This document shows positions 1-50,898 of a DNA stretch of 64,000 nt, in pieces (within the stretch, counting starts at the first letter, position 1; the number at the start of each line of letters is the position of its first letter). Position numbers and translations under genes: made by a program. The DNA is taken from the NCBI RefSeq assembly GCF_057098645.1, contig NZ_CM169472.1. The stretch is one strand, 5' to 3'. The notes beneath the pieces were generated by a model. It was not told the DNA's origin. It saw only the letters and a program-made list of their open reading frames with translations, and made no database searches.

Positions 1-99
1 CGTGTTCAGTCCATTATTGATGATCTGCGCGATCAGATAGCCCTGCGGGTGACCGAAGCAGGTGCGGATGATGAGGAGGAATTACAGCAGGAGGAGTAA
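1..99 (+). CDS. Small terminase subunit, 3' end only (partial at window edge)
   Basis: Frame 1 is open from base 1 to TAA at 97-99 and ends in an acidic tail (DDEEELQQEE). The stop overlaps the large-terminase ATG as TAATG. Assignment rests on position alone. Confidence 0.4.
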   Translation, partial: RVQSIIDDLRDQIALRVTEAGADDEEELQQEE

Positions 100-2201
100 T
101 GCTGAATCAGGAAACCGCAAAGGCAGCACGAACCGATTCAGGTTATATCCTTCGCGCACCGAGACGAATGCTGGTTGCTGATGCCGTTGCTCAGTATATG
201 CGGGTGCCCATGGGGGCCGGGAATTCAGTCCCGTGGGATCCGCTGGTGGCACCGTATGTTATTGAGCCGATGAACTGCCTGGCCTCGCGTGAATACGACG
301 CAGTGATATTTGTTGGCCCGGCACGAACTGGCAAGACTATCGGCCTGATTGACGGCTGGGTGATTTACAATGTGATTTGCGATCCTGCTGATATGCTGAT
401 CATTCAGATGACGGAGGAAAAAGCCCGCGAACACTCCAAAAAACGACTTGCCAGAACGTTTCGCGTCAGCCCGGAAGTGGTCAGTCGCCTGAGTCCGAAC
501 AAAAATGACAACAACGTTTATGACAGAACATTCCTTGCTGGCAACTACCTGAAAATCGGCTGGCCGTCAGTCAATATCATGTCCTCATCAGATTATAAAT
601 GCGTGGCGCTGACGGATTATGACCGTTTTCCGGAAGATATTGATGGCGAGGGGGATGCCTTCTCTCTTGCCTCAAAACGTACCACCACATTTATGTCCAG
701 TGGTATGACGCTGGTGGAGAGTTCCCCCGGCAGGGATGTGAAGGATGTGAAATGGCGACGGACTTCACCGCATGAGGCTCCACCAACCACGGGGATACTG
801 TCGCTCTATAACCGTGGCGATCGCCGTCGCTGGTACTGGCCCTGTCCACACTGTGGTGAGTATTTTCAGCCCTGCGGCGATGTGGTTGCTGGTTTCCGTG
901 ATATTGCCGATCCCGTGCTGGCAAGTGAGGCGGCTTATATTCAGTGTCCTTCCTGTTCAGGACGGATTATGCCTGAACAAAAACGTGAGCTGAACGGACG
1001 TGGGGTCTGGTTGCGGGATGGTGAATCCATCAATGCGGATGGCAGTCGTTATGGTGATCCCCGACGCTCACGTATTGCGTCATTCTGGATGGAGGGTCCG
1101 GCAGCTGCTTACCAGACACTCTCGCAACTCGTTTACAAACTGCTTACTGCAGAACAGGAATACGAGACAACCGGAAGTGAAGAAACACTCAAGACGGTTA
1201 TCAATACCGACTGGGGATTACCTTATCTTCCCCGTGCCAGCATGGAGCAACGAAAAAGTGAACTGCTTGAGCAGCGGGCAGAGCCAGTTCCTTCCCGCAG
1301 TGTGCCGGATGGCGTTAATTTCCTGGTGGCGACAGTGGATGTGCAGGCGGGACGTCATCGCCGTTTTGTGGTTCAGGTAACGGGCTATGGCAGCCGTGGC
1401 GAACGCTGGATTATTGATCGTTACAACATCACGCAGTCATTGCGCGGTGACAGCGACGGGGAGAGCCAGCGAATTGATCCGGCCAGCTATCCGGAAGACT
1501 GGGATGTCCTGCTGACGGATGTTTTTCATAAAAGCTGGCCGCTGGCCTCCGATCCTTCTCAACAAATGCGACTGATGGCTATGGCGGTGGACTCCGGCGG
1601 TGAAGACGGGGTCACTGATAATGCCTATAAATTCTGGCGTCGTTGCCGTCGTGATGGCCTTGGTAAACGTATTTACCTGTTTAAGGGCGACAGCATCCGG
1701 CGCGCAAAACTGATCACCCGTACATTCCCTGATAACACCGGACGAACGGGCCGACGGGCGCAGGCCGCAGGTGATGTGCCGCTCTGGCTTCTTCAGACGG
1801 ATGCCCTGAAAGACCGGGTGAATAACGCGTTATGGCGTGACTCTCCAGGTCCCGGCTATGTGCATTTCCCTGACTGGCTGGGGAGCTGGTTTTACGACGA
1901 ACTGACGTATGAAGAGCGGAGTAGTGACGGGAAATGGAGTAAGCCGGGTCGCGGTGCCAACGAAGCTTTTGACCTGATGGTGTATGCCGAGGCTCTGGTC
2001 ATTCTGCATGGATACGAAAAGATCCGCTGGCCGGATGCACCGGAGTGGGCGAGCCTGGAAACCTGGCTGGAGTGTGTCCCGGACAGTACCGAACCGTCAC
2101 CCTCACCGGAACCGGTATCCACGCCTGTTAAAAAACAAAAACGGAAGAAAACAGTAACTGACGATGTTAACCCCTGGCTGACTTCCGGAGGATGGTTATG
2201 A
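99..2201 (+). CDS. Terminase large subunit, GpA family
   Basis: 700 aa ORF with a Walker-A-like motif VIFVGPARTGKT and a CPHCGEYF zinc-finger-like motif comparable to lambda gpA CPHCGEEQ. It is the first gene of the head module. Confidence 0.85.
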   Translation: MLNQETAKAARTDSGYILRAPRRMLVADAVAQYMRVPMGAGNSVPWDPLVAPYVIEPMNCLASREYDAVIFVGPARTGKTIGLIDGWVIYNVICDPADMLIIQMTEEKAREHSKKRLARTFRVSPEVVSRLSPNKNDNNVYDRTFLAGNYLKIGWPSVNIMSSSDYKCVALTDYDRFPEDIDGEGDAFSLASKRTTTFMSSGMTLVESSPGRDVKDVKWRRTSPHEAPPTTGILSLYNRGDRRRWYWPCPHCGEYFQPCGDVVAGFRDIADPVLASEAAYIQCPSCSGRIMPEQKRELNGRGVWLRDGESINADGSRYGDPRRSRIASFWMEGPAAAYQTLSQLVYKLLTAEQEYETTGSEETLKTVINTDWGLPYLPRASMEQRKSELLEQRAEPVPSRSVPDGVNFLVATVDVQAGRHRRFVVQVTGYGSRGERWIIDRYNITQSLRGDSDGESQRIDPASYPEDWDVLLTDVFHKSWPLASDPSQQMRLMAMAVDSGGEDGVTDNAYKFWRRCRRDGLGKRIYLFKGDSIRRAKLITRTFPDNTGRTGRRAQAAGDVPLWLLQTDALKDRVNNALWRDSPGPGYVHFPDWLGSWFYDELTYEERSSDGKWSKPGRGANEAFDLMVYAEALVILHGYEKIRWPDAPEWASLETWLECVPDSTEPSPSPEPVSTPVKKQKRKKTVTDDVNPWLTSGGWL

Positions 2202-2410
2202 ACCAGAATGATATCGAAGCCATGATTCAGCGTTATACGGAAGCTGAAATGGCGGTGCTGGACGGAAAATCCGTCACCTTTAATGGTCAGCAGATGACCA
2301 TGGAAAACTTATCTGAGATCCGGCAGGGACGGCAGGAGTGGGAGCGCCGCCTTGCGGCTCTGATTACACGACGACGGGGGCATCCTGGGTACCGGCTGGC
2401 GAGGTTCTGA
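2192..2410 (+). CDS. gpW-like head-tail joining protein
   Basis: 72 aa ORF directly after the terminase. Its C-terminus (TRRRGHPGYRLARF) resembles lambda gpW (QRRRGPAGFYV). Start overlaps the terminase end. Confidence 0.6.
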   Translation: MVMNQNDIEAMIQRYTEAEMAVLDGKSVTFNGQQMTMENLSEIRQGRQEWERRLAALITRRRGHPGYRLARF

Positions 2411-3918
2411 TGGCAATTCTTGATGATGTGATTGGCGTTTTTTCACCAGGATGGAAAGCGGCAAGGCTGCGTTCCCGTGCGGTGATCCAGGCTTATGAGG
2501 CCGTAAAAACGACACGGACACACAAAGCCCGGCGGGAAAACCGAACTGCCGACCAGTTAAGCCAGTACGGGGCCGTGTCGTTACGTGAGCAGGCCCGTTA
2601 CCTTGATAACAACCACGATCTGGTTATTGGTGTATTTGACAAGCTGGAAGAACGGGTGGTGGGGAAAAACGGGATTATTGTCGAGCCACATCCGGTATTA
2701 CGCAATGGGGCCATTGCCCGTGATCTGGCAGCGGAGATACGCACCCGATGGAGTGAATGGTCTGTCAGTCCGGAAGTCACCGGGCAGTTTACCCGTCCGA
2801 TGCTGGAACGTCTGATGCTGCGTACCTGGCTGCGCGATGGTGAGGTGTTTGCCCAGATGGTTTCCGGGCGCATAAACAGCCTGACGCCTTCTGCCGGTGT
2901 TCATTTCTGGCTGGAGGCGCTCGAGCCGGACTTTATTCCCATGACCAGTGATGAGAGCAACAGGCTGAATCAGGGCGTGTTTGTTGATGACTGGGGGCGT
3001 CCCGAAAAATATCTGGTGTATAAAAGCCGTCCCGTATCCGGGCGGCAGATGGAAACCAAAGAAGTGGATGCAGAGCGAATGCTGCATCTTAAATTTGTTC
3101 GCCGTCTGCACCAGATGCGCGGGACGTCTTTGTTGTCCGGTGTGCTGATCCGCCTCAGTGCCCTGAAAGAGTATGAAGATTCTGAGCTGACTGCAGCAAG
3201 GATCGCCGCTGCTCTGGGGATGTACATCCGGAAAGGCGACGGGCAGAGCTATGAACCGGATGGTAATGGCAGCAAGGAGAATGAACGCGAGCTTACCATT
3301 CAGCCAGGCATTATTTACGACGATCTGAAACCCGGCGAAGAAATCGGAATGGTGAAGTCGGATCGTCCCAATCCTAACCTTGAAACTTTTCGTAATGGTC
3401 AGTTGCGTGCCGTGGCGGCGGGCAGTCGTCTGAGTTTTTCCAGTACGGCACGCAACTATAACGGCACTTACAGCGCCCAGCGTCAGGAACTGGTTGAGTC
3501 TACTGATGGCTACCTGATCCTGCAGGACTGGTTTATTGGTGCCGTCACCCGCCCGATGTATCGTGCCTGGCTGAAACAGGCTGTGGCATCCGGTGTTATC
3601 AGGTTACCCCGCGATCTTGACCGTTCTTCACTGTATACCGCGGTGTATTCCGGACCAGTGATGCCGTGGATTGACCCTGTTAAGGAGGCTGAGGCCTGGA
3701 AAATCCAGATTCGTGGTGGAGCGGCGACAGAATCAGACTGGGTACGTGCTGGTGGTCGTAATCCGGATGATGTCAAACGTCGGCGCAAGGCCGAAATTGA
3801 TGAAAACCGCAAGCTGGATCTGGTATTTGATACCGATCCGGCCAGTGATAAAGGAGGCAGCAGTGCCGCAACGAAACGACAGGAGCCGCAGCACACCGAC
3901 GACCAGTCCGAAGAATAA
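2410..3918 (+). CDS. Portal protein
   Basis: About 502 aa, starting at ATG 2410, which overlaps the W-like stop (ATGA). Position after terminase and W, and size, fit a lambda-family portal. The ORF-track start at 2338 is probably an upstream extension. Confidence 0.75.
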   Translation: MAILDDVIGVFSPGWKAARLRSRAVIQAYEAVKTTRTHKARRENRTADQLSQYGAVSLREQARYLDNNHDLVIGVFDKLEERVVGKNGIIVEPHPVLRNGAIARDLAAEIRTRWSEWSVSPEVTGQFTRPMLERLMLRTWLRDGEVFAQMVSGRINSLTPSAGVHFWLEALEPDFIPMTSDESNRLNQGVFVDDWGRPEKYLVYKSRPVSGRQMETKEVDAERMLHLKFVRRLHQMRGTSLLSGVLIRLSALKEYEDSELTAARIAAALGMYIRKGDGQSYEPDGNGSKENERELTIQPGIIYDDLKPGEEIGMVKSDRPNPNLETFRNGQLRAVAAGSRLSFSSTARNYNGTYSAQRQELVESTDGYLILQDWFIGAVTRPMYRAWLKQAVASGVIRLPRDLDRSSLYTAVYSGPVMPWIDPVKEAEAWKIQIRGGAATESDWVRAGGRNPDDVKRRRKAEIDENRKLDLVFDTDPASDKGGSSAATKRQEPQHTDDQSEE

Positions 3919-3931
3919 TTCCTGGTTCAGG

Positions 3932-5890
3932 ATGCAGGCTGGTCACCAGAGTGACGCGGATATTTATATTTATGACGAGATTGGTTTCTGGGGTGTTACA
4001 GCGAAGCAGTTTATCAGTGATCTGAATGCACTGGGCGATATCACCCACATTAATCTCCATATTAATTCACCGGGTGGCGATGTCTTTGAAGGCATCGCCA
4101 TTTTTAATGCGCTGAAAACACATGGTGCGTCCATTACCGTTTATGTCGACGGTGTGGCGGCGTCAATGGCGTCGGTCATTGCGATGGTGGGAAACCCGGT
4201 CATTATGCCGGAAAACACCTTCATGATGATTCATAAACCATTTGGCTTTACGGGCGGTGATGCGGAGGACATGCGCACCTATGCCGACCTGCTCGATAAG
4301 GTTGAGGCGGTTCTGTTACCCGCTTATGCACAGAAAACCGGGAAAACCACCGATGAAATTGCTGCCATGCTGGCGGATGAGACCTGGATGTCCGGTGCCG
4401 AATGTCTGGCACATGGATTTGCTGATCAGGTAACGCCAGCCGTTAAGGCAATGGCATGTATTCAGTCAAAACGTACAGAGGAATTTAAAAAGATGCCGGA
4501 ATCCATTCGAAACATGATTACTCCGCCACGCAACAGTGCTCCACGCGTACAGGATGATGAACCTGCAGCCTCCCGGACGCCAGTGCAGGCAGCAGCACCC
4601 GTGGTGGATGAAAACAGTATCCGTGCGCAGGTACTGGCAGAGCAAAAAGCGCGTGTAAACGGTATTAATGATCTGTTTGCCATGTTTGGCGGGCGTTATC
4701 AGACGCTGCAGGCTCAGTGTCTTGCCGATCCTGAATGTTCGCTGGAGCAGGCCCGCGAAAAGCTGTTGAACGAGATGGGGCGCGAGTCCACGCCATCCAA
4801 TAAAAATACCCCGGCTCATATTTATGCCGGTAACGGTAATTTTGTGGGGGACGGGATCCGCCAGGCGCTGATGGCGCGTGCCGGATTTGAAAAAACCGAA
4901 CGTGATAATGTCTACAACGGGATGACCCTGCGTGAATATGCCCGTATGTCACTGACTGAACGGGGTATTGGGGTTTCCAGTTATAACCCGATGCAGATGG
5001 TCGGTGCGGCGTTCACACACAGTACGTCTGACTTCGGTAATATTCTGCTGGATGTTGCGAACAAAGCCATTCTGCAGGGCTGGGAAGATGCCCCTGAAAC
5101 CTATGAACAGTGGACGCGGAAAGGTCAGTTGTCTGATTTTAAAATTGCCCATCGTGTGGGTATGGGGGGCTTCAGTGCTCTGCGTCAGGTGCGTGAAGGG
5201 GCGGAATATAAATACGTCACCACCGGAGATAAACAGGCCACTATTGCACTGGCGACCTATGGCGAGCTGTTCAGTATCACCCGTCAGGCCATTATCAATG
5301 ATGATCTGAATATGCTGACCGATGTCCCGATGAAACTGGGCCGTGCGGCGAAATCCACTATTGCCGATCTGGTTTATGCCATTCTGACGTCTAACCCGAA
5401 AATCTCCACAGATAATGTAAGTCTGTTCGATAAAGCGAAACATGCAAACGTACTGGAGAGCGCTGCAATGGACGTGGCATCGCTGGATAAAGCCCGCCAG
5501 TTGATGCGCGTTCAGAAAGAGGGGGAGCGTCATCTGAATATTCGTCCTGCGTTCGTACTGGTACCGACGGCGATGGAGTCTGTTGCTAACCAGGTCATTC
5601 GCTCCTCAAGTGTCAAGGGGGCTGACATTAACGCCGGTATTATTAACCCGGTGAAAGATTTTGCGACCGTTATTGCAGAGCCTCGTCTTGATGATAACAG
5701 CCAGACCACTTTCTACCTGGCTGCGTCCAAAGGCTCCGATACGATTGAAGTGGCTTATCTCAACGGTGTGGATACGCCATATATTGATCAGATGGAGGGC
5801 TTCAGTGTGGATGGCGTGACAACGAAAGTGCGTATTGACGCCGGTGTCGCGCCAGTTGATCACCGCGGTCTGGTGAAATGTACGGCGTAA
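3932..5890 (+). CDS. Prohead protease (ClpP-like) fused to scaffold-like linker and major capsid protein domain
   Basis: Single uninterrupted frame. The N-terminal ~200 aa look like a ClpP/S14 peptidase (INSPGGDV, MASV.A, MIHKP). A charged Pro/Ala-rich linker follows, then a C-terminal ~330 aa capsid-like domain. Start chosen at the first ATG after the portal stop. Confidence 0.7.
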   Translation: MQAGHQSDADIYIYDEIGFWGVTAKQFISDLNALGDITHINLHINSPGGDVFEGIAIFNALKTHGASITVYVDGVAASMASVIAMVGNPVIMPENTFMMIHKPFGFTGGDAEDMRTYADLLDKVEAVLLPAYAQKTGKTTDEIAAMLADETWMSGAECLAHGFADQVTPAVKAMACIQSKRTEEFKKMPESIRNMITPPRNSAPRVQDDEPAASRTPVQAAAPVVDENSIRAQVLAEQKARVNGINDLFAMFGGRYQTLQAQCLADPECSLEQAREKLLNEMGRESTPSNKNTPAHIYAGNGNFVGDGIRQALMARAGFEKTERDNVYNGMTLREYARMSLTERGIGVSSYNPMQMVGAAFTHSTSDFGNILLDVANKAILQGWEDAPETYEQWTRKGQLSDFKIAHRVGMGGFSALRQVREGAEYKYVTTGDKQATIALATYGELFSITRQAIINDDLNMLTDVPMKLGRAAKSTIADLVYAILTSNPKISTDNVSLFDKAKHANVLESAAMDVASLDKARQLMRVQKEGERHLNIRPAFVLVPTAMESVANQVIRSSSVKGADINAGIINPVKDFATVIAEPRLDDNSQTTFYLAASKGSDTIEVAYLNGVDTPYIDQMEGFSVDGVTTKVRIDAGVAPVDHRGLVKCTA

Positions 5891-5976
5891 ACGTCGCAGA
5901 CAACAACTCTGATGGCCCGTAAGGGCTTTTTTTGTACCTGAAATCAGCCCCTGAACGGGGCTGTGCGGAGACAGTT

Positions 5977-6300
5977 ATGGCAAAGAATTTTGTAGAAGAA
6001 GGAAAAACGGTGGCGATTGTTGCCAGTGCAGCCATCAGCAGCGGAGATCTGGTGCAGGTGGGCGATGTTTTTGCGGTGGCGCTGACCGATATTCCACAGG
6101 GTGAAACAGGCGACGGCATGACCGAAGGTGTGTTTATGCTGCCTAAGCTGAAAACGGATGACATGAAAACGGGTAAGAAGGTTTATCTGAAGTCCGGAAA
6201 AGTTCAGCTGACTAACAGCGGCTCTGATCCGCTGGTCGGGGTTGTCTGGGCAGATGCCGGAACCAGTGCAGAAGAAGTGCCGGTAAAACTCAATGTCTGA
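5977..6300 (+). CDS. Small phage head protein (DUF2190-like, possible decoration or head-completion protein)
   Basis: 107 aa from ATG 5977, preceded by GGAG. Lies right after the capsid gene. Family assignment is from memory and is weak. Confidence 0.4.
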   Translation: MAKNFVEEGKTVAIVASAAISSGDLVQVGDVFAVALTDIPQGETGDGMTEGVFMLPKLKTDDMKTGKKVYLKSGKVQLTNSGSDPLVGVVWADAGTSAEEVPVKLNV

Positions 6301-6568
6301 TCCCTTTTCCCGGCTGGCAGCGCGTATGGATGCTATCACGGTCAGAAAGATGGGAAAGACAGCCTCGATTAATGATGTCGATATGACTGTGATCCCGGGA
6401 GAAACACTGGCAGAACTGAATGCTCTGTCCGGACCTGCGGTCTCTCTGGTGGTGTTTTCTTCGGGATACCGCCCACGGCGCGGGGATCGCGTTGTTTATG
6501 ACGGACAACAATGGACGGTCACACGGCATGAACGCTTTAACGGTAAGCCAATGATCTTTATTGAGTAA
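6293..6568 (+). CDS. Head-tail connector protein (gpFII-like)
   Basis: 91 aa, translationally coupled to the previous gene (ATG 6293 overlaps its stop). It sits between head and tail genes and has an RRGDRV motif similar to lambda FII RRGDTL. Confidence 0.5.
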   Translation: MSDPFSRLAARMDAITVRKMGKTASINDVDMTVIPGETLAELNALSGPAVSLVVFSSGYRPRRGDRVVYDGQQWTVTRHERFNGKPMIFIE

Positions 6569-6579
6569 AGAGGTGTGGG

Positions 6580-7158
6580 ATGAAGGGGCTTGAGAATGCC
6601 ATCCGTAATCTGAACAGCCTTGATACCCGTATGGTGCCACAGGCCAGCGCATGGGCGATAAACCGTGTGGCACAGAAAGCGGTCTCGGTTGCCACCCGGC
6701 AGGTTGCCGGGAATACCGTTGCGGGAGATAACCAGGTGAAAGGGATCCCCCTGAAACTGGTACGTCAGCGTGTCCGGGTGTTTAAAGCCAGTCCGTCAGG
6801 AAAAATGACGGCCAGGATCCGCGTTAACCGGGGCAATCTGCCCGCCATTAAGCTGGGGACAGCCCGGGTCAGACTGGCCCGGCGTGGTGGAAAACTGCAG
6901 TACCGTGGCAGTGTGCTGAAGGTGGGTAAATATCTTTTCCGGGATGCGTTTATTCAGCAACTGGCGAATGGTCGCTGGCATGTGATGCGGCGTATTGATG
7001 GCAAAAATCGTTACCCCATTGATGTGGTGAAAATCCCGCTTTCCGGACCGCTGACACAGGCATTTGAAGATGCCCGCGACCGCATCATTGCTGCGGAAAT
7101 GCCGAAACAGCTGGGGTATGCACTGAAACAACAACTGAGGTTATGGCTGACCCGATGA
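6580..7158 (+). CDS. Z: Tail completion protein Z
   Basis: 192 aa, the same length as lambda gpZ, with colinear similarity (NGRWHVM.R..GKNRYPIDVVKIP, LGYAL..QLR). Confidence 0.8.
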   Translation: MKGLENAIRNLNSLDTRMVPQASAWAINRVAQKAVSVATRQVAGNTVAGDNQVKGIPLKLVRQRVRVFKASPSGKMTARIRVNRGNLPAIKLGTARVRLARRGGKLQYRGSVLKVGKYLFRDAFIQQLANGRWHVMRRIDGKNRYPIDVVKIPLSGPLTQAFEDARDRIIAAEMPKQLGYALKQQLRLWLTR

Positions 7159-7556
7159 ACCGACATACACAAATCCGCCAGGCCGTACTGGCACGCCTTC
7201 GGGAACAGTGTGGAGACAGCGCCACGTTTTTTGACGGGCTTCCGGCATTTATTGATGCGCAGGAACTGCCTGCCGTGGCGGTGTGGCTGAGTGATGCTCA
7301 GTACACCGGAAAAATGACGGATGAAGATGACTGGCAGGCTGTTCTGCATATTGCTGTCTTCATCCGGGCACAGGCACCGGATTCAGAGCTGGATATGTGG
7401 ATGGAGAGCACCATTTTCCCGGCCCTGAATGATATACCGGCACTTTCCGGACTCATCGACACCCTGATCCCTCTCGGTTTTAACTATCAACGTGATAATG
7501 AGATGGCCACCTGGGCGATGGCGGAAATCACGTACCAGATCACGTACACGAATTAA
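7143..7556 (+). CDS. U: Tail terminator protein U
   Basis: 137 aa with lambda gpU-like motifs (ATFFDG, PAVAV.L, PDSELD.WMES, DIPALS). Confidence 0.8.
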   Translation: MADPMNRHTQIRQAVLARLREQCGDSATFFDGLPAFIDAQELPAVAVWLSDAQYTGKMTDEDDWQAVLHIAVFIRAQAPDSELDMWMESTIFPALNDIPALSGLIDTLIPLGFNYQRDNEMATWAMAEITYQITYTN

Positions 7557-7561
7557 AGGAG

Positions 7562-8311
7562 GTGGCAATGACCACACCAAATCCACTGGCAAAAACGAAA
7601 GGTGCGGGAACGACGTTCTGGATGTACACCGGCAAGGGCGATGCGTTTGCGAACCCTTTATCGGACACTGACTGGCTGCGTCTTGCGATGGTGAAGGATC
7701 TGCAACCTGGCGAAATGACCGCTGATGCAGAAGATGACACTTATCTCGATGATGAAGATGCAGACTGGAAAACGACAACCCAGGGGCAGAAATCCGTCGG
7801 TGATACTTCGGCGACGCTGGCCTGGCGTCCGGGTGACAGCGGGCAGAAAAAACTGGTTCAGTTGTTCGACTCCGGTGAAGTCTGCGCGTTTCGTATCAAA
7901 TATCCCAACGGCACTGTTGATGTTTTCCGTGGCTGGCTGAGCTCACTGGGTAAAACCATTGCCTCAAAAGACGTGATGACCCGCACAGTGAAAATCAGCG
8001 GTGTGGGGCGTCCGTATCTGGCAGAGGAAGGCACTGAAACAGTGAGCGTTACCGGGCTGACGGTGGCACCGGCATCTGCCAGTGTAAAAGTGGGAGCAAC
8101 CACCACGCTGACCTTTACAGTAAAACCTGACGGAGCCAGTGACAAAGCGATCAGTGTGCATTCGACAGATCCACAGACTGCCACGGTGACCCTGAACGGG
8201 CTTGTGGCCACGGTGAAAGGCGTGAAGCAGGGCAGTGTCAGCATTGTGGGCATGACTTCTGACGGCGATTTTGTGGCAGTGGCTGCGGTGGCTGTCAGCG
8301 CCGCAGGTTAA
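7562..8311 (+). CDS. V: Major tail protein V with C-terminal Ig-like domain
   Basis: 249 aa, near-colinear with lambda gpV (KGAGTT.W.Y.G, YLDDEDADW, FRGW.SS.GK). Strong SD AAGGAGG precedes the start. Confidence 0.9.
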   Translation: MAMTTPNPLAKTKGAGTTFWMYTGKGDAFANPLSDTDWLRLAMVKDLQPGEMTADAEDDTYLDDEDADWKTTTQGQKSVGDTSATLAWRPGDSGQKKLVQLFDSGEVCAFRIKYPNGTVDVFRGWLSSLGKTIASKDVMTRTVKISGVGRPYLAEEGTETVSVTGLTVAPASASVKVGATTTLTFTVKPDGASDKAISVHSTDPQTATVTLNGLVATVKGVKQGSVSIVGMTSDGDFVAVAAVAVSAAG

Positions 8312-8331
8312 CAGGACGATACTCATCATTT

Positions 8332-8355
8332 GCCCCGGTTATCCGGGGCTTTTTT
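8332..8355 (+). terminator. Stem-loop with T-run between V and G (possible attenuator)
   Basis: GCCCCGG-TTAT-CCGGGGC followed by TTTTTT, immediately after the V stop. Confidence 0.45.
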
Positions 8356-8368
8356 GCAGGTGGAGAAC

Positions 8369-8758
8369 ATGATGTTTCTGAAACAGGGCACGTTTAATTA
8401 TGAAAAGCAGTCCGTGGTGCTCAGTGAGCTGTCCGGGCTGCAGAGAATTGAATATCTGGCGTTTGTTCAGCAGCGAACGGCAAAGTTTGATGCCGAAGAG
8501 GGAGAACTGCCGGAGGCTGAACGACAGATTGCTTTTCTGCGGATGGGGATGGATATCAATGCCTGGCTGGTTTCCCGCTCACTGTGGAATGCGGAACAGT
8601 CTCAGGATGTTGAGACGCTTTGCGCATCCGTTATTACAACATGGTCGTATGATGCCCTGGGAGCGGGGGCGGAGATGGTTCTGTCGCTGAGCGGTATGGG
8701 AGCCATTGAGAATGCCGGGGATTTGGAGCATGAGGTGCTGACGCCGGAAAAGTCCTGA
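8369..8758 (+). CDS. G: Tail assembly chaperone G
   Basis: Start MMFLKQ parallels lambda G MFLKT, and the LSELSGLQRIEYLA motif matches. The ORF-track TTG start at 8330 lies inside the upstream hairpin and is rejected. Confidence 0.8.
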   Translation: MMFLKQGTFNYEKQSVVLSELSGLQRIEYLAFVQQRTAKFDAEEGELPEAERQIAFLRMGMDINAWLVSRSLWNAEQSQDVETLCASVITTWSYDALGAGAEMVLSLSGMGAIENAGDLEHEVLTPEKS

Positions 8759-9096
8759 CGCGGGAAATGCAGTTTGTCATGCGGCTTGCCCGGGAGTTCC
8801 GGCGGGCAGACTGGCGGCGGATGCTGTCGGAAATGTCGGCCACTGAGCTTGGTGAGTGGGGCGATTATTTCCGGATGCAGAGCTTCAGTGATGTCTGGAT
8901 GGATGCGCAGTTTGCCTCGCTGAAGGCATTGATCGTGAGAATGGTGTCCGGCAGCAGTGATGCTGCGGTGGCTGATTTCAGCCTTTTACCGGAAGAGAAC
9001 GGGATACCGGAGCGAACGGACGAAGAACTGATGCATCTTGGAGAAGGTATTTCCGGAGGTGTGCGTTATGGACCAGATAGCCAACCTGGTCATTGA
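8734..9096 (+). CDS. T: Tail assembly chaperone T segment, expressed as a G-T fusion by -1 frameshift
   Basis: The -1 frame relative to G is open from 8734 and continues to 9096. G ends at 8758, so the shift must occur in 8734-8758. The lambda GGGAAAG site is replaced here by GGAAAAG at 8746-8752. Confidence 0.6.
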   Translation, partial: GADAGKVLTREMQFVMRLAREFRRADWRRMLSEMSATELGEWGDYFRMQSFSDVWMDAQFASLKALIVRMVSGSSDAAVADFSLLPEENGIPERTDEELMHLGEGISGGVRYGPDSQPGH

Positions 9097-12000
9097 TTTG
9101 GGGATTGATGCGGCAGAGTTTAAAAATGAAATTCCCCGTATCAAAAACCTTCTGAATGGTGCCGCCAGCGATGCAGAACGGTCTTCTGCCCGTATGCAGC
9201 GTTTTATGGAGCGTCAGACTCAGGCCGCCCGGCAGACAACGCAGGCGGCTTCTTCGGCTGCAACAGCCGCCTCCGTCCATGCGCAGACGGTGGAGAAGAA
9301 CGCACAGGCTCATGAACGCATGGCCCGCGAGGTGGAGAAAACCCGCCAGCGCATGGAGGCGCTGAGCCAGAAAATGCGCGATGAACAGGCGCAGGCCATG
9401 GCTCTGGCGGAGGCTCAGGATAAAGCGGCTGCTGCGTTTTATCGTCAGATTGACAGTGTGAAACAGGCCAGTGCGGGGCTGCAGGAATTACAGCGTATTC
9501 AGCAGCAGATCCGACAGGCCAGAAACAGTGGCGGGATTGGTCAGCAGGATTATCTGGCGCTGATTTCTGAGGTTACGGCGAAAACCCGTGTTCTTACACA
9601 GGCTGAGGAAGAGGCTACCCGACAGAAAGTGGCGTTTATCCGTCAGCTTAAAGAGCAGGCAACCCGCCAGAATCTTTCTTCTTCTGAGTTGCTTCGTGCT
9701 AAGGCTGCCCAGCTGGGGGTAAGCAGTGCTGCAGAAGTGTATATCCGCAAAATGGAGCAGGCAGGAAAAGCCACGCATTCGCTGGGTCTGAAAAGTGCAG
9801 CGGCCCGCCAGGAGATAGGCGTTCTGATAGGTGAACTGGCTCGCGGCAATTTAGGTGCGCTGAGGGGATCCGGGATAACGCTGGCTAACCGTGCCGGATG
9901 GATAGACACACTGATGTCACCGAAAGGCATGATGCTGGGCGGGGTTATTGGCGGTATTGCCGCGGCCGTCTATGGTCTGGGTAAAGCCTGGTATGATGGT
10001 CAGAAGGAGGGGGAAGAATTTAACCGCCAGTTGTCGCTGACGGGGCATTATGCCGGAGTCACTGCCGGGCAGCTGTGGACGCTCAGTCGTGCTATTTCCG
10101 GGAATGGTATTACGCAACATGCTGCAGCCGGTGCGCTGGCTCAGGTGGTGGGGAGTGGTGCATTTCGTGGAAACGATATCGGTATGGTGGCGAGAGCTGC
10201 CGCACAGATGGAGCGATCGGTTGGCCAGTCGGTCAGCGATACCATAAATCAGTTTAAGCGGCTGAAGGATGATCCTGTAAATGCCGCGAAGGCTCTGGAC
10301 AATGAGCTGCATTTTCTTACTGCCACTCAGCTTGAGCAGATACGCGTCCTTGGGGAACAGGGGCGGTCCAGTGATGCGGCACGGATAGCCATGTCTGCAC
10401 TGGCAGAGGAAACCGGTCGGCGTACTGCGGATATTGATAATAACCTCAATGCGCTGGGCAGTACGCTGAAGTATCTGTCTGATTTATGGAGTCGTTTCTG
10501 GGATGCGGCCATGAATATTGGTCGTGAAGACTCGCTGGATGAACAGATTTCCGCTTTACAGGAGAAAGTGTCGCAGGCGAAAAGACTCCCCTGGACGGCA
10601 TCATCTTCTCAGGTTGAGTACGATCAGCAGCGTCTTAACGAGCTTCAGGAGAAAAAACGCCAGAAGGATTTGCAGGATGCAAAAGAGCAGGCAGAGCGGA
10701 ATTATCAGGAGCAACAGAAACGCCGTAATGCTGAAAATGCTGCACTGAACCGGATGAATGAAACGGAAGCAGCACGACATCAGCGTGAAATTGCGCGTAT
10801 TAATGCCATGCAGTACGCCGATCAGGCTGTCAGGGATGCGGCGATACAACGTGAAAATGAACGTTACGAGAAAGCCCTGGCATCCGGTAAGAAAAAAACA
10901 CGCGAACCCCGTAATGATGAGGCCACCCGGTTATTGCTGCAGTACAGTCAGCAACAGGCACAGGTGGAAGGACAGATTGCTGCTGCCAGACAGTCAGCAG
11001 GCATTGCCACGGAAAGGATGACAGAAGCGCATAAACAGCTTCTGGCTCTGCAGCAGCGCATCAGCGACCTGGACGGGAAAAAACTGACGGCAGATGAAAA
11101 GAGTGTGCTGGCCCGTAAAGATGAACTGATTCAGGCACTGACGCTGCTGGATGTAAAACAGCAGGAGCTTCAGAAACAGACGGCACTCAACGAGCTGAAG
11201 AAAAAAACAATTCAGCTGACCAGTCAACTGGCTGAAGAAGAGCGCGCTCAGCGTCAGCAACATGACCTGGATATCGCCACGGTGGGTATGGGTGATCAGC
11301 AGCGGCAGCGATATCAGGTACAACTGAGTCTTCGCCAGAAATACCAGCAACAGCTGGAACAGTTGAGGCGGGATAGTGAGCAGAAAGGAACATATAACAC
11401 GGATGACTACAGAAAGGCCGAGCAGGCGCTGACGGAGAGCCTGAACCGACAACTGAATGAGAATCGCCGTTACTGGCAACAGCTTGAAGTTGTGCAGGGT
11501 AACTGGAAAAACGGAGTCCTGCGTGCATTTCAGGATTTTACCGTGGATGCAGATAATACGGCAGGAACAGCAGAACAGGTGTTCTCGTCAGCCTTCAGCA
11601 ACATGGGAAATGGCCTGGCAACTTTTGTCACTACCGGCAAACTCAATTTCAAATCCTTCACCTCTTCTGTGCTGTCAGATATGGCGAAAATCCTGGCGCA
11701 GGCAACCATGATGAAATCGATAAAAGGGATTGGCAGTGTACTGGGATTTGATCTCAGCAGCCTTTCCCTGAATGCCAATGGGGGGATTTATCAGTCTGCT
11801 GATTTGAGTCGTTACAGTGGCACGGTGGTTAACCGTCCGACGTTTTTTGCTTTTGCAAAAGGCGCGGGTGTGATGGGGGAAGCGGGACCTGAAGCCATTC
11901 TGCCACTGCGTCGTGGTGCTGACGGTAAGCTGGGGGTTGTGGCGGATATTGGTGGTTCAGGTATGGCGATGTTTGCCCCGCAGTACAACATCGAGATCAA

Positions 12001-12133
12001 TAACGATGGCACGAACGGGCAGATAGGTCCGGCTGCCCTGAAGGTGGTTTATGACCTTGGGAAAAAAGCGGCAGCGGACTTTATGCAACAGCAGGCCCGT
12101 GATGGTGGTCGGTTAAGTGGAGCATATCGGTAA
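9068..12133 (+). CDS. H: Tail tape measure protein H
   Basis: About 1021 aa, coiled-coil-rich. The C-terminus (NDGTNGQIGPAALK.VYD) matches lambda gpH. Start chosen at MDQIANLVIDL, by analogy to lambda H MAEPVGDLVVDL. Confidence 0.85.
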   Translation: MDQIANLVIDLGIDAAEFKNEIPRIKNLLNGAASDAERSSARMQRFMERQTQAARQTTQAASSAATAASVHAQTVEKNAQAHERMAREVEKTRQRMEALSQKMRDEQAQAMALAEAQDKAAAAFYRQIDSVKQASAGLQELQRIQQQIRQARNSGGIGQQDYLALISEVTAKTRVLTQAEEEATRQKVAFIRQLKEQATRQNLSSSELLRAKAAQLGVSSAAEVYIRKMEQAGKATHSLGLKSAAARQEIGVLIGELARGNLGALRGSGITLANRAGWIDTLMSPKGMMLGGVIGGIAAAVYGLGKAWYDGQKEGEEFNRQLSLTGHYAGVTAGQLWTLSRAISGNGITQHAAAGALAQVVGSGAFRGNDIGMVARAAAQMERSVGQSVSDTINQFKRLKDDPVNAAKALDNELHFLTATQLEQIRVLGEQGRSSDAARIAMSALAEETGRRTADIDNNLNALGSTLKYLSDLWSRFWDAAMNIGREDSLDEQISALQEKVSQAKRLPWTASSSQVEYDQQRLNELQEKKRQKDLQDAKEQAERNYQEQQKRRNAENAALNRMNETEAARHQREIARINAMQYADQAVRDAAIQRENERYEKALASGKKKTREPRNDEATRLLLQYSQQQAQVEGQIAAARQSAGIATERMTEAHKQLLALQQRISDLDGKKLTADEKSVLARKDELIQALTLLDVKQQELQKQTALNELKKKTIQLTSQLAEEERAQRQQHDLDIATVGMGDQQRQRYQVQLSLRQKYQQQLEQLRRDSEQKGTYNTDDYRKAEQALTESLNRQLNENRRYWQQLEVVQGNWKNGVLRAFQDFTVDADNTAGTAEQVFSSAFSNMGNGLATFVTTGKLNFKSFTSSVLSDMAKILAQATMMKSIKGIGSVLGFDLSSLSLNANGGIYQSADLSRYSGTVVNRPTFFAFAKGAGVMGEAGPEAILPLRRGADGKLGVVADIGGSGMAMFAPQYNIEINNDGTNGQIGPAALKVVYDLGKKAAADFMQQQARDGGRLSGAYR

Positions 12134-12462
12134 TGGAGACGTTTCACTGGAAAGTGCGCCCGGATATGAATGTGGTATCAGAGCCGAAAGTGGTGACAGT
12201 GAAGCTGGGCGATGGTTATGAACAGCGTCGTGCGGCGGGACTGAATAACCAGTTGTCGACTTACAGCGTGACGATACGTGTTCGTAAATGTGAACACCCA
12301 TCTTTAAAAGCCTTTCTGGAACGGCACGGTGGCGTCCGTGCATTTCAGTGGACGCCACCTTATGACTGGAAACCGATTAGGGTGGTTTGTCGTAAATGGT
12401 CGGCAAGCGTGGGGGCGCTGTGGGTAACCATAACGGCAGATTTTGAACAGGTCGTGGCATAG
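12133..12462 (+). CDS. M: Minor tail protein M
   Basis: 109 aa, colinear with lambda gpM (FHWKVRPDMNV, GDGYEQR, TYSV, HGG, WTPPYDWK). Confidence 0.9.
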   Translation: METFHWKVRPDMNVVSEPKVVTVKLGDGYEQRRAAGLNNQLSTYSVTIRVRKCEHPSLKAFLERHGGVRAFQWTPPYDWKPIRVVCRKWSASVGALWVTITADFEQVVA

Positions 12463-12471
12463 GAGGCTCTG

Positions 12472-13170
12472 ATGCAGGATATTCCACAGGAAACACATCA
12501 TGAGACGACACGCCTCACTCAGTCAGCCCAGGTGGTGCTCTGGGAAATCGATCTGACAGAGGTCGGTGGTGAACGTTATTTTTTCTGTAATGAGCAGAAC
12601 GAAAAAGGTGAGCCGGTTACCTGGCAGGGGCGGCAGTATCAGGCATACCCCATTCAGGGGACGGGATTTGAACTGAATGGCAAGGGCAGTGCTGCCCGTC
12701 CGACACTGACGGTTTCTAACCTGCACGGCATGGTCACCGGGATGGCGGAAGACCTGCAGAGTCTGGTCGGCGGAACGGTGGTCAGGCGTAAGGTTTACGC
12801 CCGTTTTCTGGATGCGGTGAACTTCGTCAACGGAAACAGCGACGCCGATCCGGAGCAGGAGGTGATCAGCCGCTGGCGCATCGAGCAGTGCAGCGAACTG
12901 AGTGCGGTCAGTGCCTCCTTTGTGTTGTCCACACCGACGGAAACGGATGGTGCCGTTTTTCCGGGGCGCATCATGCTGGCCAACACCTGCACCTGGACCT
13001 ATCGCAGTGATGAGTGCGGTTATCACGGTCCGGCTGTCGCGGATGAATATGATCAGCCGACGTCCGATATCACGAAGGATAAATGCAGCAAATGCCTGAG
13101 TGGCTGTAAGTTCCGCAATAATGTCGGCAACTTTGGCGGCTTCCTTTCCATTAACAAACTTTCGCAGTAA
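12472..13170 (+). CDS. L: Minor tail protein L
   Basis: 232 aa, nearly identical to lambda gpL as I recall it. Confidence 0.9.
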   Translation: MQDIPQETHHETTRLTQSAQVVLWEIDLTEVGGERYFFCNEQNEKGEPVTWQGRQYQAYPIQGTGFELNGKGSAARPTLTVSNLHGMVTGMAEDLQSLVGGTVVRRKVYARFLDAVNFVNGNSDADPEQEVISRWRIEQCSELSAVSASFVLSTPTETDGAVFPGRIMLANTCTWTYRSDECGYHGPAVADEYDQPTSDITKDKCSKCLSGCKFRNNVGNFGGFLSINKLSQ

Positions 13171-13175
13171 ATCCC

Positions 13176-13919
13176 ATGACAGAGACAGAATCAGCGATTC
13201 TGGCGCACGCCCGGCGATGTGCGCCAGCGGAGTCGTGCGGCTTCGTGGTGAGAACGCCGGAAGGGGAAAGATATTTTCCCTGCGTGAATATCTCCGGTGA
13301 GCCGGAGGATTATTTCCGGATGTCGCCGGAGGACTGGCTGCGGGCAGAGATGCAGGGTGAGATTGTGGCGCTGGTCCACAGCCACCCCGGTGGCCTGCCC
13401 TGGCTGAGTGAGGCTGACCGGCGGCTGCAGGTGCAGAGTGATTTGCCATGGTGGCTGGTCTGCCGGGGGGCGATTCATAAATTCCGCTGTGTGCCGCATC
13501 TTACCGGGCGGCGCTTTGAGCACGGGGTGACGGATTGTTACACGCTGTTCCGGGACGCTTACCATCTGGCGGGGATTGAGATGCCGGATTTTCATCGTGA
13601 GGATGACTGGTGGCGTAACGGCCAGAATCTCTATCTGGATAATCTGGAGGCCACAGGACTGTATCAGGTGCCGTTGTCATCAGCACAACCGGGTGATGTG
13701 CTGCTGTGCTGTTTTGGTTCATCGGTGCCGAATCATGCCGCCATTTACTGTGGTGACGGCGAGCTGCTGCACCATATTCCTGAACAACTGAGCAAACGAG
13801 AGAGGTATACAGACAAATGGCAGCGACGCACACACTCCCTCTGGCGTCACCGGGCATGGCACGCATCTGCCTTTACGGGGATTTACAACGATTTGGCCGC
13901 CGCATCGACCTTCGTGTGA
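13176..13919 (+). CDS. K: Tail tip assembly protein K
   Basis: 247 aa, nearly identical to lambda gpK as I recall it. Confidence 0.9.
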   Translation: MTETESAILAHARRCAPAESCGFVVRTPEGERYFPCVNISGEPEDYFRMSPEDWLRAEMQGEIVALVHSHPGGLPWLSEADRRLQVQSDLPWWLVCRGAIHKFRCVPHLTGRRFEHGVTDCYTLFRDAYHLAGIEMPDFHREDDWWRNGQNLYLDNLEATGLYQVPLSSAQPGDVLLCCFGSSVPNHAAIYCGDGELLHHIPEQLSKRERYTDKWQRRTHSLWRHRAWHASAFTGIYNDLAAASTFV

Positions 13920-14458
13920 AAACGGGGGCTGAAGCCATCCGCGCACTGGCCACACAGCTCCCGGCGTTTCGTCAGAAACTGAGCGACGGCTGGTATCAGG
14001 TACGGATTGCCGGGCGTGATGCAGGCGAAAATGAATTATCAGCCCGTCTTAATGAACCGCTGGCAAATGGTGCTGTGATCCATATCGTGCCGCGTCTGGC
14101 AGGAGCCAAAAGTGGCGGTGTGTTTCAGGCTGTGCTGGGGGCGGCTGTTATGGCGGTTGCTATATGGATGCCGGGGGTAGGAATTATGGCGAGTAATCTG
14201 CTGTTTTCTCTCGGTGCCAGTATGACGCTTGGCGGTGTTGCACAGATGCTGGCCCCTAAACCCAAAACCCCCCGCACACAGACAACGGATAACGGCAAAC
14301 AGAACACCTATTTTTCTTCACTGGATAATATGGTTGCCCAGGGCAATGTCCTGCCCGTTCTGTACGGTGAAATGCGTGTGGGGTCGCGGGTGGTATCTCA
14401 GGAGATCAGCACGGCAGATGAAGGTGATGGTGGTCAGGTTGTGGTGATTGGTCGCTGA
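13817..14458 (+). CDS. I: Tail tip assembly protein I
   Basis: 213 aa. Its N-terminus MAATHTLPLASPGMARICLYGDLQRFGRRIDLRV matches lambda gpI. It overlaps the K 3' end as in lambda. Confidence 0.85.
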   Translation: MAATHTLPLASPGMARICLYGDLQRFGRRIDLRVKTGAEAIRALATQLPAFRQKLSDGWYQVRIAGRDAGENELSARLNEPLANGAVIHIVPRLAGAKSGGVFQAVLGAAVMAVAIWMPGVGIMASNLLFSLGASMTLGGVAQMLAPKPKTPRTQTTDNGKQNTYFSSLDNMVAQGNVLPVLYGEMRVGSRVVSQEISTADEGDGGQVVVIGR

Positions 14459-14518
14459 TGAAAAATGTTTTATGTGAAACCGCCTGCGGGCGGTTTTGTC
14501 GTTTATGGAGCGTGACGA

Positions 14519-17500
14519 ATGGGTAAAGGCAGCAGTAAGGGGCATACCCCGCGCGAAGCGAAGGACAACCTGAAATCCACGCAGTTGCTGAGTGTGATTG
14601 ATGCCATCAGTGAAGGGCCGGTTGAAGGTCCGGTGGATGGATTAAAAAGCGTGCTGCTGAACAGTACGCCGGTGCTGGACAGTGAGGGGAATACCAACAT
14701 CGCCGGTGTCACGGTGGTGTTCCGGGCTGGTGAGCAGGAGCAGACTCCGCCGGAGGGATTTGAATCCTCCGGCTCCGAGACGGTGCTGGGTACGGAAGTG
14801 AAATACGACACGCCGATCACCCGCACCATCACGTCGGCAAACATCGACCGTCTGCGCTTTACCTTCGGTGTACAGGCACTGGTGGAAACCACCTCAAAGG
14901 GTGACAGGAATCCGTCGGAAGTCCGTCTGCTGGTTCAGATACAACGTAACGGTGGCTGGGTGACGGAAAAAGACATCACCATTAAGGGCAAAACCACCTC
15001 GCAGTATCTGGCCTCGGTGGTGGTGGGTAGCCTGCCGCCGCGCCCGTTTAATATCCGGATGCGCAGGATGACGCCGGACAGCACCACAGACCAGCTGCAG
15101 AACAAAACGCTCTGGTCGTCATACACCGAAATCATCGATGTGAAACAGTGCTACCCGAACACGGCACTGGTCGGCGTGCAGGTGGACTCGGAGCAGTTCG
15201 GCAGCCAGCAGGTGAGCCGTAATTATCATCTTCGCGGGCGCATTCTGCAGGTGCCGTCGAACTATAACCCGCAGACGCGGCAATACAGCGGTATCTGGGA
15301 CGGAACGTTAAAGCCAGCATACAGCAACAACATGGCCTGGTGTCTGTGGGATATGCTGACCCACCCGCGCTACGGCATGGGGAAACGTCTTGGTGCGGCG
15401 GATGTGGACAAATGGGCGCTGTATGTCATCGGCCAGTATTGCGACCAGTCGGTGCCGGACGGTTTTGGCGGCACGGAGTCGCGCATCACCTGTAACGCTT
15501 ACCTGACCACACAGCGTAAGGCGTGGGATGTTCTCAGTGATTTCTGCTCGGCGATGCGCTGTATGCCGGTATGGAACGGGCAGACGCTGACGTTCGTGCA
15601 GGACCGACCGTCGGATAAGGTGTGGACCTATAACCGCAGTAATGTGGTGATGCCGGATGATGGCGCGCCGTTCCGCTACAGTTTCAGCGCCCTGAAGGAC
15701 CGCCATAATGCCGTTGAGGTGAACTGGATTGACCCGAATAACGGCTGGGAGACGGCGACAGAGCTTGTGGAGGACACGCAGGCCATTCTCCGTTACGGTC
15801 GTAACGTCACGAAGATGGATGCCTTTGGCTGTACCAGCCGGGGGCAGGCACACCGCGCCGGGCTGTGGCTGATTAAAACGGAGCTGCTGGAAACGCAGAC
15901 TGTGGACTTCAGCGTGGGCGCAGAAGGGCTTCGCCATGTACCGGGCGATGTCATTGAAATCTGCGATGATGACTATGCGGGTATCAGCGTCGGCGGGCGC
16001 GTGCTTGCGGTAAACAGCCAGACCCGGACACTGACGCTCGACCGTGAAATCATGCTGCCATCCTCCGGAACCACGCTGATAAGCCTGGTTGACGGAAATG
16101 GCAATCCGGTCAGCGTGGAGGTCCAGTCCGTCACCGACGGCGTGAAGGTGAAAGTGAGCCGTGTTCCTGACGGCGTTGCCGAATACAGCGTGTGGGGGCT
16201 GAAGCTGCCGACGCTGCGCCAGCGCCTGTTCCGCTGCGTGAGTATCCGTGAGAACGATGACGGCACGTATGCCATCACCGCCGTGCAGCATGTACCGGAG
16301 AAAGAAGCCATCGTGGATAACGGGGCGCACTTTGACGGTGACCAGAGCGGCACGGTGAATGGTGTCACGCCGCCAGCAGTGCAGCACCTGACCGCCGAAG
16401 TCACTGCAGACAGCGGGGAATATCAGGTGCTGGCGCGATGGGACACACCGAAGGTGGTGAAGGGCGTGAGCTTCCTGCTCCGTCTGACCGTAACAGCGGA
16501 TGACGGCAGTGAGCGGCTGGTCAGCACGGCCCGGACGACGGAAACCACTTACCGCTTCACACAACTGGCGCTGGGGAACTACAGGCTGACAGTCCGGGCA
16601 GTAAATGCGTGGGGGCAGCAGGGCGATCCGGCGTCGGTATCGTTCCGGATTGCCGCACCGGCAGCGCCGTCGCGGATTGAGCTGACGCCGGGCTATTTTC
16701 AGATAACCGCCACGCCGCATCTTGCGGTTTATGATCCGACGGTACAGTTTGAGTTCTGGTTCTCGGAAAAGCGGATTGCGGATATCAGGCAGGTTGAAAC
16801 CACAGCACGCTATCTTGGCACGGCGCTGTACTGGATAGCCGCCAGTATCAATATCAAACCGGGCCATGATTATTACTTTTATATCCGCAGTGTGAACACC
16901 GTTGGCAAATCGGCATTCGTGGAGGCTGTTGGTCAGCCGAGTGATGATGCATCCGGTTATCTGGATTTTTTCAAAGGCGAGATAGGGAAAACCCATCTGG
17001 CTCAGGAGCTGTGGACGCAGATTGATAACGGTCAGCTTGCGCCTGACCTGGCTGAAATCAGGACGTCCATTACGGATGTCAGCAATGAAATCACGCAGAC
17101 CGTCAATAAGAAACTGGAAGACCAGAGTGCTGCAATTCAGCAGATACAGAAGGTTCAGGTTGATACAAATAATAACCTGAACAGCATGTGGGCTGTGAAG
17201 CTGCAGCAGATGCAGGACGGACGCCTTTATATCGCGGGTATTGGTGCCGGTATTGAGAATACCCCTGACGGCATGCAGAGTCAGGTGCTGCTGGCGGCGG
17301 ACAGGATTGCGATGGTTAATCCTGCGAATGGCAACACAAAACCGATGTTTGTTGGTCAGGGCGATCAGATATTCATGAACGACGTGTTCCTGAAACGCCT
17401 GACGGCTCCCACCATTACCAGCGGTGGAAATCCGCCGGCATTTTCCCTGACACCAGACGGAAAGCTGACCGCTAAAAATGCGGATATCAGCGGTAATGTG

Positions 17501-18001: not shown

Positions 18002-18019
18002 ATTTTATAACCCAGAACG

Positions 18020-18043
18020 GGCGTCAGAAATGACGCCTTTTTT
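18020..18043 (+). terminator. Rho-independent terminator after J
   Basis: GGCGTCA-GAAA-TGACGCC followed by TTTTTT. Confidence 0.7.
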
Positions 18044-18067
18044 ATTGCAGAAAAGCGAGAGGTAATT

Positions 18068-18667: not shown

Positions 18668-18693
18668 TTAGCCAGGTAACACAGTGTTATGAC

Positions 18694-18720
18694 AGCCCGC
18701 CGGTTCAGGCGGGCTTTTTT
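18694..18720 (+). terminator. Rho-independent terminator after lom
   Basis: AGCCCGCC-GGTTCAG-GCGGGCT followed by TTTTTT. Confidence 0.75.
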
Positions 18721-18725
18721 GTGGG

Positions 18726-50282: not shown

Positions 50283-50898
<616 letters not shown>

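Follow-up and report, generated by a model that had tools for sequence, protein, structure and literature searches.

The late operon of a lambda-like prophage carries terminator-type hairpins in the sense strand of its RNA, whose positions are conserved among related phages, whose stems have undergone compensatory changes and whose loops are enriched in GNRA and UUCG. In the stretch of 64,000 nucleotides analyzed here (the window), two of these elements, namely the one between the tail tube gene V and the chaperone gene G (8332-8355) and hairpin A downstream of the capsid gene (5914-5933), display the anatomy of an intrinsic terminator, i.e., a G/C-rich sense-strand stem 3' of a gene with a U-run directly after it. 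Both are conserved in relatives and belong to an operon headed by a Q antiterminator. Based on the comparison of these sequences, we tentatively propose that the hairpins could be bypassed by Q-modified polymerase and would then mainly serve as RNA-decay barriers or processing boundaries, while the versions with a U-tract would also stop unmodified polymerase. We regard this as a plausible reading that we hold with limited confidence; it and the four alternatives discussed below are not mutually exclusive.

Hairpins along the late operon of the prophage

The first ~19 kb of the window represent the late operon of a lambda-like prophage, which shares 99.5% identity with Escherichia phage Ayreon and ~98% with mEp460 and cdtI. 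Its 5700-8500 segment was found in 1809 of 5426 complete E. coli genomes (at least 80% coverage), i.e., in about a third. Elsewhere in the window, Rfam matches comprised IS009 near the prophage end, four copies of the REP-like naRNA4 and the threonine operon leader (22098-22296; 28625-28905; 50288-50365; 58984-59103), which identifies the right two-thirds of the window as E. coli chromosome. All features described in the following are located on the + strand unless stated otherwise. The genes of interest are the ORF of a ClpP-protease/capsid fusion (3932-5887, stop codon at 5888-5890; Pfam CLP_protease and Phage_capsid_4), the gene of a cement or decoration protein (5977-6297; Phage_cement_2), V, which encodes the lambda-type tail tube protein (7568-8308, stop codon TAA at 8309-8311; Phage_TTP_12 and Big_2), and the chaperone gene G (8372-8755; Phage_TAC_2). 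Located 3' of the V-G site are G, T, H, M, L, K, I and J. In the region 8740-8770, where a G-T -1 frameshift site is expected, the end of G reads ...CCGGAAAAGTCCTGA, with the T-like ORF beginning at 8767.

Stable hairpins are common in coding sequence, and their energy was for this reason not used as evidence by itself: 77 hairpins of -11 kcal/mol or lower were counted on the + strand of 1-19000, and 71 of them lie inside coding sequence. A strict terminator scan of 1-20000, for which we required a fully paired stem of 7 bp or more, including five or more G/C pairs, and at least five T among the six bases that follow, returned three sites on the + strand (8332, 18020 and 18694), each of them intergenic, and none on the - strand. 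Dinucleotide shuffles yielded 0.015 strict sites per strand, the real sites being about 200 times more common. The pattern formed by hairpin A and its T7 run occurs once in the window, with an expected number of 0.

Intergenic sequence accounts for 391 of the 19,000 nt in 1-19000, and every gap of more than 50 nt contains a hairpin, namely the capsid-cement, V-G, I-J, J-lom and lom-stf gaps. The I-J gap features ACCGCC/TGCG/GGCGGT followed by TTTGTCGTTT (14479-14504; -15.2 to -21 kcal/mol), which is a terminator feature in the Ayreon record and has a stem-loop of N15 as its positional equivalent. Hairpins with a T5 run, found by the strict scan and likewise annotated as terminators in Ayreon, are located between J and lom (18019-18043) and in the gap that separates lom from the side tail fibre gene (18694-18720). 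Each of these three hairpins stands just 5' of the ribosome-binding site of the next gene. A 12-bp hairpin, GTGGCGATGTCT/AGGCATCGCCAT (-18.4 kcal/mol), followed by TTTTAATG, was also noted at 4074-4109, in the portion of the capsid ORF that encodes the ClpP protease; this hairpin could be due to chance or represent an internal attenuator.

The hairpin between V and G and its relatives

The V-G hairpin (8332-8349) is composed of a 7-bp all-G/C stem, GCCCCGG (8332-8338) and CCGGGGC (8343-8349), which encloses a TTAT loop (8339-8342) and is directly followed by a T6 run, the U-tract of the RNA (8350-8355). The initial annotation had reported this stem and T6 run between V and G as well as a pair of hairpins after the capsid gene, at 5915-5933 with T7 and at 5945-5963; the V-G element proved exact to the base, with the identities of the flanking genes given by Pfam, and the coordinates of the capsid pair were equally exact. 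Within the 57-nt V-G gap, the hairpin starts 21 nt past the V stop codon, and 13 nt separate the T6 run from the first ATG start of G. The folding energy calculation, which had been suggested as a check, gave -16.2 kcal/mol for the V-G hairpin (z = -3.5 versus shuffles), -8.8 kcal/mol for hairpin A (four G/C pairs and one G.U pair) and -13.9 kcal/mol for hairpin B (z = -3.4).

The ribosome-binding site GTGGAG and the start codons of G occupy 8360-8374, with the Shine-Dalgarno (SD) sequence GGAG at 8362-8365 and candidate ATG starts at 8369 and 8372. The ATG at 8372 fits the MFLK start of G homologues, and Ayreon annotates the start equivalent to 8369. On the antisense strand, the V-G palindrome folds about equally well. 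Sequestration of the G SD by the V-G hairpin was considered and rejected, since the extended G.U-rich helix is found in the MFE structure only, is absent from the centroid and is unconserved in relatives.

For a comparison across phages, 44 distinct V-G intergenic sequences were obtained from 80 viral contigs with V homologues (60-99% identity) together with reference phages. Of these 44 sequences, 36 contain a G/C-rich hairpin with a folding energy of about -10 to -17 kcal/mol, in gaps of 35-67 nt. At least 15 distinct stems occur, e.g., GCCCCGG/CCGGGGC, ACCCCGG/CCGGGGT, CGGGGC/GCCCCG, GGCCCC/GGGGCC, GGCTCC/GGAGCC and GCCACA/TGTGGC, and G.U intermediates are found among them, such as GCCCCGG/TCGGGGC in mEp460. 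In the homologous hairpins, GNRA and UUCG loops are far above their expected frequency, with many GNRA loops in the V-G set. Lambda, the phi80 group, an Stx2 phage and Vibrio K279 feature V-G gaps of 4-15 nt and no hairpin therein; whatever the effect of the hairpin is, it must consequently be dispensable.

The U-tract shows a different distribution. When the 34 V-G hairpins scored at -9 kcal/mol or lower were inspected, 16 were followed by a U-tract (at least five T in seven positions) and 15 by three T or fewer, a count of losses that rests on few lineages with perhaps 4-6 independent events. Tails without a U-tract read e.g., TTCTAT in Gifsy-1, TTCCCC in N15 and ATCTTC or CCTCTT in others. 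In the N15, Gifsy-1 and L035-type lineages, the U-less hairpins reach -12 to -14 kcal/mol and carry GNRA loops; the L073 and L048 groups are U-less as well. Since the U-tract is kept in only about half of the V-G homologues, the conserved unit at this site appears to be the hairpin and not the terminator signature. This is one of several points that weaken the functional interpretation of the initial annotation, which is only partly supported. The retention of the hairpin in lineages where the U-tract is gone, together with stability-enhancing loops, favors a role at the RNA level rather than in termination. In line with this, both the U-less V-G hairpins and the covariation in hairpin B described below suggest that a stable hairpin is maintained by selection independently of termination signals.

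A further observation concerns the distance from the V stop codon, which amounts to 17-22 nt for U-bearing and 4-13 nt for U-less hairpins in the set compared (L004-L091), a split based on few independent lineages. It could reflect a constraint imposed by the ribosome footprint on real terminators, or shared ancestry.

The element downstream of the capsid gene

Hairpin A (5914-5927) consists of GCCC (5915-5918), the loop GTAA and GGGC (5923-5926) with a closing G.U pair (5914/5927). It is followed by a T7 run (5927-5933), by the conserved single-stranded linker GTACCTGAAAT (5934-5944; family consensus RTRYCTGAAWY) and by hairpin B (5945-5963), whose 7-bp stem CAGCCCC (5945-5951) and GGGGCTG (5957-5963) encloses the loop TGAAC. 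The tail of hairpin B reads TGCGGAGA, i.e., it has no T-run and thus lacks the U-run of an intrinsic terminator. The SD sequence GGAG and the ATG at 5977 of the cement gene follow at 5967-5979. The linker was also considered as a sigma-70 promoter with TATACC as -10 element, for which a -10 hexamer with A2 and T6 and a -35 element at 16-18 bp were required. This candidate was rejected, as the final T is missing in all variants, no -35 element is found at this distance and the promoter scan reports none there; the window variant TGTACC also lacks the A at -10 position 2.

Relatives of this element were collected via three retrieval routes, i.e., V homology, a DNA pattern scan and cement-protein homology, all of which agree. 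The stem of hairpin A, GCCC-N4-GGGC, is identical in all 37-65 distinct relatives, with a variable loop, and the spacer between the stop codon and hairpin A varies freely. Among sequences retrieved by cement-protein homology alone, the element was located 5' of all 42 unique cement-gene homologues, and 40 of the 42 unique upstream regions contain exactly T7. The linker shows 79-81% identity across relatives. In comparison to relatives with a capsid identity of 71% or less, identity was 1.00 for the hairpin A stem and the U7 run and 0.79 for the linker, with 4-fold synonymous sites being saturated (0.22-0.29), and the capsid-downstream element appears to be under purifying selection. For hairpin A, a short all-G/C stem of 4 bp may be frozen since any single change would destroy it.

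Hairpin B occurs in 39 distinct stems among 65 unique relatives, with UUCG (nine times), GCAA (seven times) and GAAA (three times) as loops, and directly adjoins the cement SD sequence (GGAG) in all relatives. Five of its seven pairs have changed on both sides, with 13 doubly changed cells versus 2.3 in shuffles, in an alignment that was model-fitted and thereby favors the structure, of a set that was independently retrieved. None of 500 shuffles reached the observed value, and slid controls stayed far below it; in a plain MAFFT alignment of the element, pair counting is blurred by one-column register shifts. The sense strand of hairpin B is the more stable one in 43 of 65 cases, which mildly supports the sense strand as the relevant one.

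A covariance model built from the capsid-element sequences matched 80 independently retrieved loci once each and the window once (5912-5979, E = 4e-18), with no further match. Rfam 15 contained no match to either site, neither at the gathering score across the whole window nor at E-values up to 10 in 5800-8450. Look-alikes of the T7 run and linker outside the capsid family (L123, L107 and others) turned out to be ordinary terminators in unrelated contexts, the L123 copy preceding a tailspike-like gene. The small RNA sRNA-17 of an mEp460-like prophage is unrelated as well, as it maps to a 1152-bp intergenic region and not to the gaps considered here (PMC7719688).

The sequence conservation of the capsid element far exceeds the need of a generic terminator; this is the most interesting residue of the analysis, although it is not established as new. 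A possible, albeit rather doubtful, explanation is that the capsid pair forms a dedicated cis-regulatory RNA module, comprising the invariant GCCC-N4-GGGC stem, the invariant U7 run, the linker RTRYCUGAAWY and the covarying hairpin B at the SD sequence. Such a module could be the target of a specific factor, either RNase E or a different RNA-binding protein of host or phage origin, and would split the late mRNA and set the ratio of capsid to cement or of capsid to downstream products, or gate cement translation. The succession of a putatively weak terminator (hairpin A and U7), a conserved A/U-rich linker and a stable hairpin B adjoining the ribosome-binding site of the cement gene is a layout that would be expected for endonuclease processing, which would leave the capsid mRNA protected at its 3' end and the downstream mRNA at its 5' end. 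RNase E prefers RN|WUU; the linker motif fits this preference only in some variants, and cleavage of the linker by RNase E is a guess.

The position of the hairpins relative to the following genes could also hint at elements of translation context. In all gaps, the hairpins end 15-22 nt before the next start codon and directly 5' of the SD sequence, as is the case for hairpin B and the cement GGAG throughout the relatives. Here, the hairpin would shield the next ribosome-binding site from structures located 5' of it, the U-rich or A/U-rich flank would offer a standby or S1 site, and in the capsid element the CCU of the linker could pair with the SD as a cis anti-SD, a pairing that processing would relieve. 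In the structure prediction, the probability of the cement SD being unpaired rises from 0.54 to 0.80 when the RNA begins after CUG. However, linker and SD pair only weakly, and roughly one sequence in three lacks this pairing, the extended SD pairing at V-G is confined to the unconserved MFE structure mentioned above, and lambda translates G without such an element; we therefore consider this explanation improbable.

Relics without present function, which would mark old boundaries between head, tail shaft, tail tip and fibre modules and have spread by mosaic exchange, are yet another option, as hairpins are situated at the module junctions capsid/head completion, V/G, I/J and J/lom and several phages have no V-G hairpin. 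This seems very improbable in light of the compensatory changes and loop selection, which indicate ongoing constraint, of the conservation of hairpin A, U7 and linker at saturated synonymous divergence, and of an operon from which gaps are otherwise squeezed out.

Antitermination and comparison with known systems

The gene for the Q antiterminator itself lies outside the window, and its context was read from Ayreon and from E. coli YPE10, both of which encode Q; the YPE10 prophage is 100% identical over 5700-8500. The Q protein matches Pfam Antiterm (PF03589) with E = 7e-53, and in YPE10 its gene is located on the same strand 5' of a DNA methyltransferase gene, the lysis genes and the terminase genes. 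Two further terminator-like hairpins stand between Q and the terminase genes of YPE10 (L294, 2084-2103 and 3498-3514, minus strand), one after the methyltransferase gene and one after the lysis cassette, matching annotated terminators of Ayreon. Downstream of the V-G site, a single sigma-70-like site (12553) was found on the + strand of 8355-20000. The tail genes after V are all essential in lambda. With eight essential tail genes 3' of V and promoter-like sites near-absent after it, polymerase must pass position 8355 in lytic growth, and since Q heads the operon, strong termination cannot be the lytic-phase function of the hairpins.

Partial termination in lytic growth would let a fixed fraction of polymerases stop at each hairpin, so that the mRNA dosage steps down after the capsid gene and after V, as at T-phi of phage T7. 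The V-G element of the window has all the sequence features typical of a strong intrinsic terminator, hairpin A is followed by a perfect U7, phage T7 has its terminator after the major capsid gene with read counts falling there, and many phage terminators are leaky by design. Such attenuators nonetheless appear unlikely, given that Q heads the operon and Q-modified polymerase is terminator-resistant, that about half of the homologous V-G hairpins are U-less, that the cement gene after the capsid site needs a capsid-like dosage and that hairpins also precede J and lom. Attenuation is one of the options listed by the authors of a study on phage L (PMC8022706).

The initial annotation had likewise offered partial terminators or RNA stabilizers, which is the same pair of ideas as in the literature, and had linked them to a high stoichiometry of capsid and tail-tube proteins relative to downstream gene products. 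This latter idea is weakened by our comparison, because the gene after the capsid hairpins encodes the cement protein, because hairpins also follow the low-copy genes I, J and N15 gp20, because antitermination operates on the operon and because lambda manages without the V-G hairpin. Decoration proteins are needed in about the copy number of the capsid protein.

Alternatively, the hairpins could be safety terminators only, which would be idle in lytic growth and would stop spurious, host read-in or tR'-escaped polymerase in the lysogen, thereby insulating the structural genes and the lom moron. The late operon contains at least eight terminator-like hairpins, spaced along its length, including both sides of lom, and sense-stranded throughout. 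PR' is reported to be constitutively active, with its transcripts being terminated in the lysogen and antiterminated once the prophage is induced. Termination of transcription started without antitermination was also listed for phage L (PMC8022706). An exclusive safety function would, however, leave unexplained the U-less but stable and covarying stems, hairpin B, which never has a U-tract, as well as the sequence invariance of hairpin A and the linker, and it therefore also seems rather unlikely.

Our preferred reading, i.e., hairpins that are bypassed by Q-modified polymerase and act chiefly on RNA decay or processing, can be outlined as follows. In lytic growth, Q-modified RNA polymerase would read through the hairpins, which would end up within the long late mRNA and could block 3'-to-5' exonucleases after RNA cutting or occasional termination. 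The capsid and tail-tube segments would thereby outlive the downstream RNA. Hairpins with a U-tract could additionally stop polymerase not modified by Q, originating from leaky transcription in the lysogen or from read-in, and may end a minor share of late transcription. Several points speak against this reading: similar hairpins at the low-copy genes I and J would be unneeded if abundant cistrons were to be stabilized, the phages named above, lambda among them, do without a V-G hairpin, hairpin A, at its predicted energy of -8.8 kcal/mol, would be weak as an exonuclease barrier, and the cement gene following the capsid hairpins needs capsid-like amounts.

The V-G feature is thus real, non-random and conserved; it is of a known kind, so that the finding as originally stated adds little. 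The comparative data rather sharpen the question of how late-gene dosage is tuned under antitermination, an answer to which would also help to engineer the gene dosage of phages. Literature searches covering Term-seq, ONT-cappable-seq, Gifsy transcriptomes and lambda ribosome profiling returned nothing on these sites; in a Salmonella transcriptome study, the Gifsy late genes were silent.

In fact, hairpins of this type have been an annotated feature of lambda-like phages for 25 years, and the remark in the initial annotation that the ORF track alone would not reveal the sites is weakened, as they are already GenBank features of mEp460, Ayreon and N15. The records of mEp460 (JQ182728) and Ayreon (MF807953), to which the window is 98-99.5% identical, contain the same element with both sites annotated as (rho-independent) terminators; these annotations were made in silico, and in mEp460 a C-to-T change turns the loop-closing pair of the V-G stem into G.U. 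The Ayreon annotation also covers the I-J, J-lom and lom-stf hairpins, along with several others located between Q and the terminase genes. In N15 (AF064539, deposited 2000), a “stem_loop, putative rho-indep. transcription terminator” is given after the decoration, major head, major tail (gp13) and I-like (gp20) genes, i.e., at equivalent positions of a lambda-like late operon. The N15 V-G hairpin differs in its flipped stem CGGGGC-GCGA-GCCCCG, in starting 4 nt past the stop codon and in being U-less (TTCCCCCC).

For lambda, the initial annotation had named no equivalent, which is correct for the V-G gap, with its 15 nt and no hairpin, and incorrect for the head region. Here, the D-E gap holds GGCCGC-CUGU-GCGGCU with U7 and the E-FI gap AUGGCCC-UUCG-GGGCCAU (L212, lambda J02459, 378-438 and 1459-1505), following the genes of the two most abundant head proteins; both are unannotated in J02459. 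A role in RNA stability also has precedents: in the malE-malF REP and in the inter-cistronic terminators or stabilizers of phiX174, a stable stem-loop 3' of an abundantly expressed cistron keeps out 3' exonucleases and increases expression of the upstream relative to the downstream part. The hairpins described here, for which a comparable action would be conceivable, share no sequence similarity with REP.

The P22-like phage L features a predicted terminator after its procapsid module within an antiterminated late operon driven by a single promoter, for which the authors considered either partial termination or the halting of transcription begun without antitermination (Zaworski et al. 2021, PMC8022706); phage L is, however, of another type and unrelated in sequence. 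An experimentally tested analogue is provided by T7, whose only terminator, T-phi, is located directly after the major capsid gene 10 and coincides with a drop in read counts, in a system that differs by its own RNA polymerase, by promoters downstream of the terminator and by having no antiterminator.
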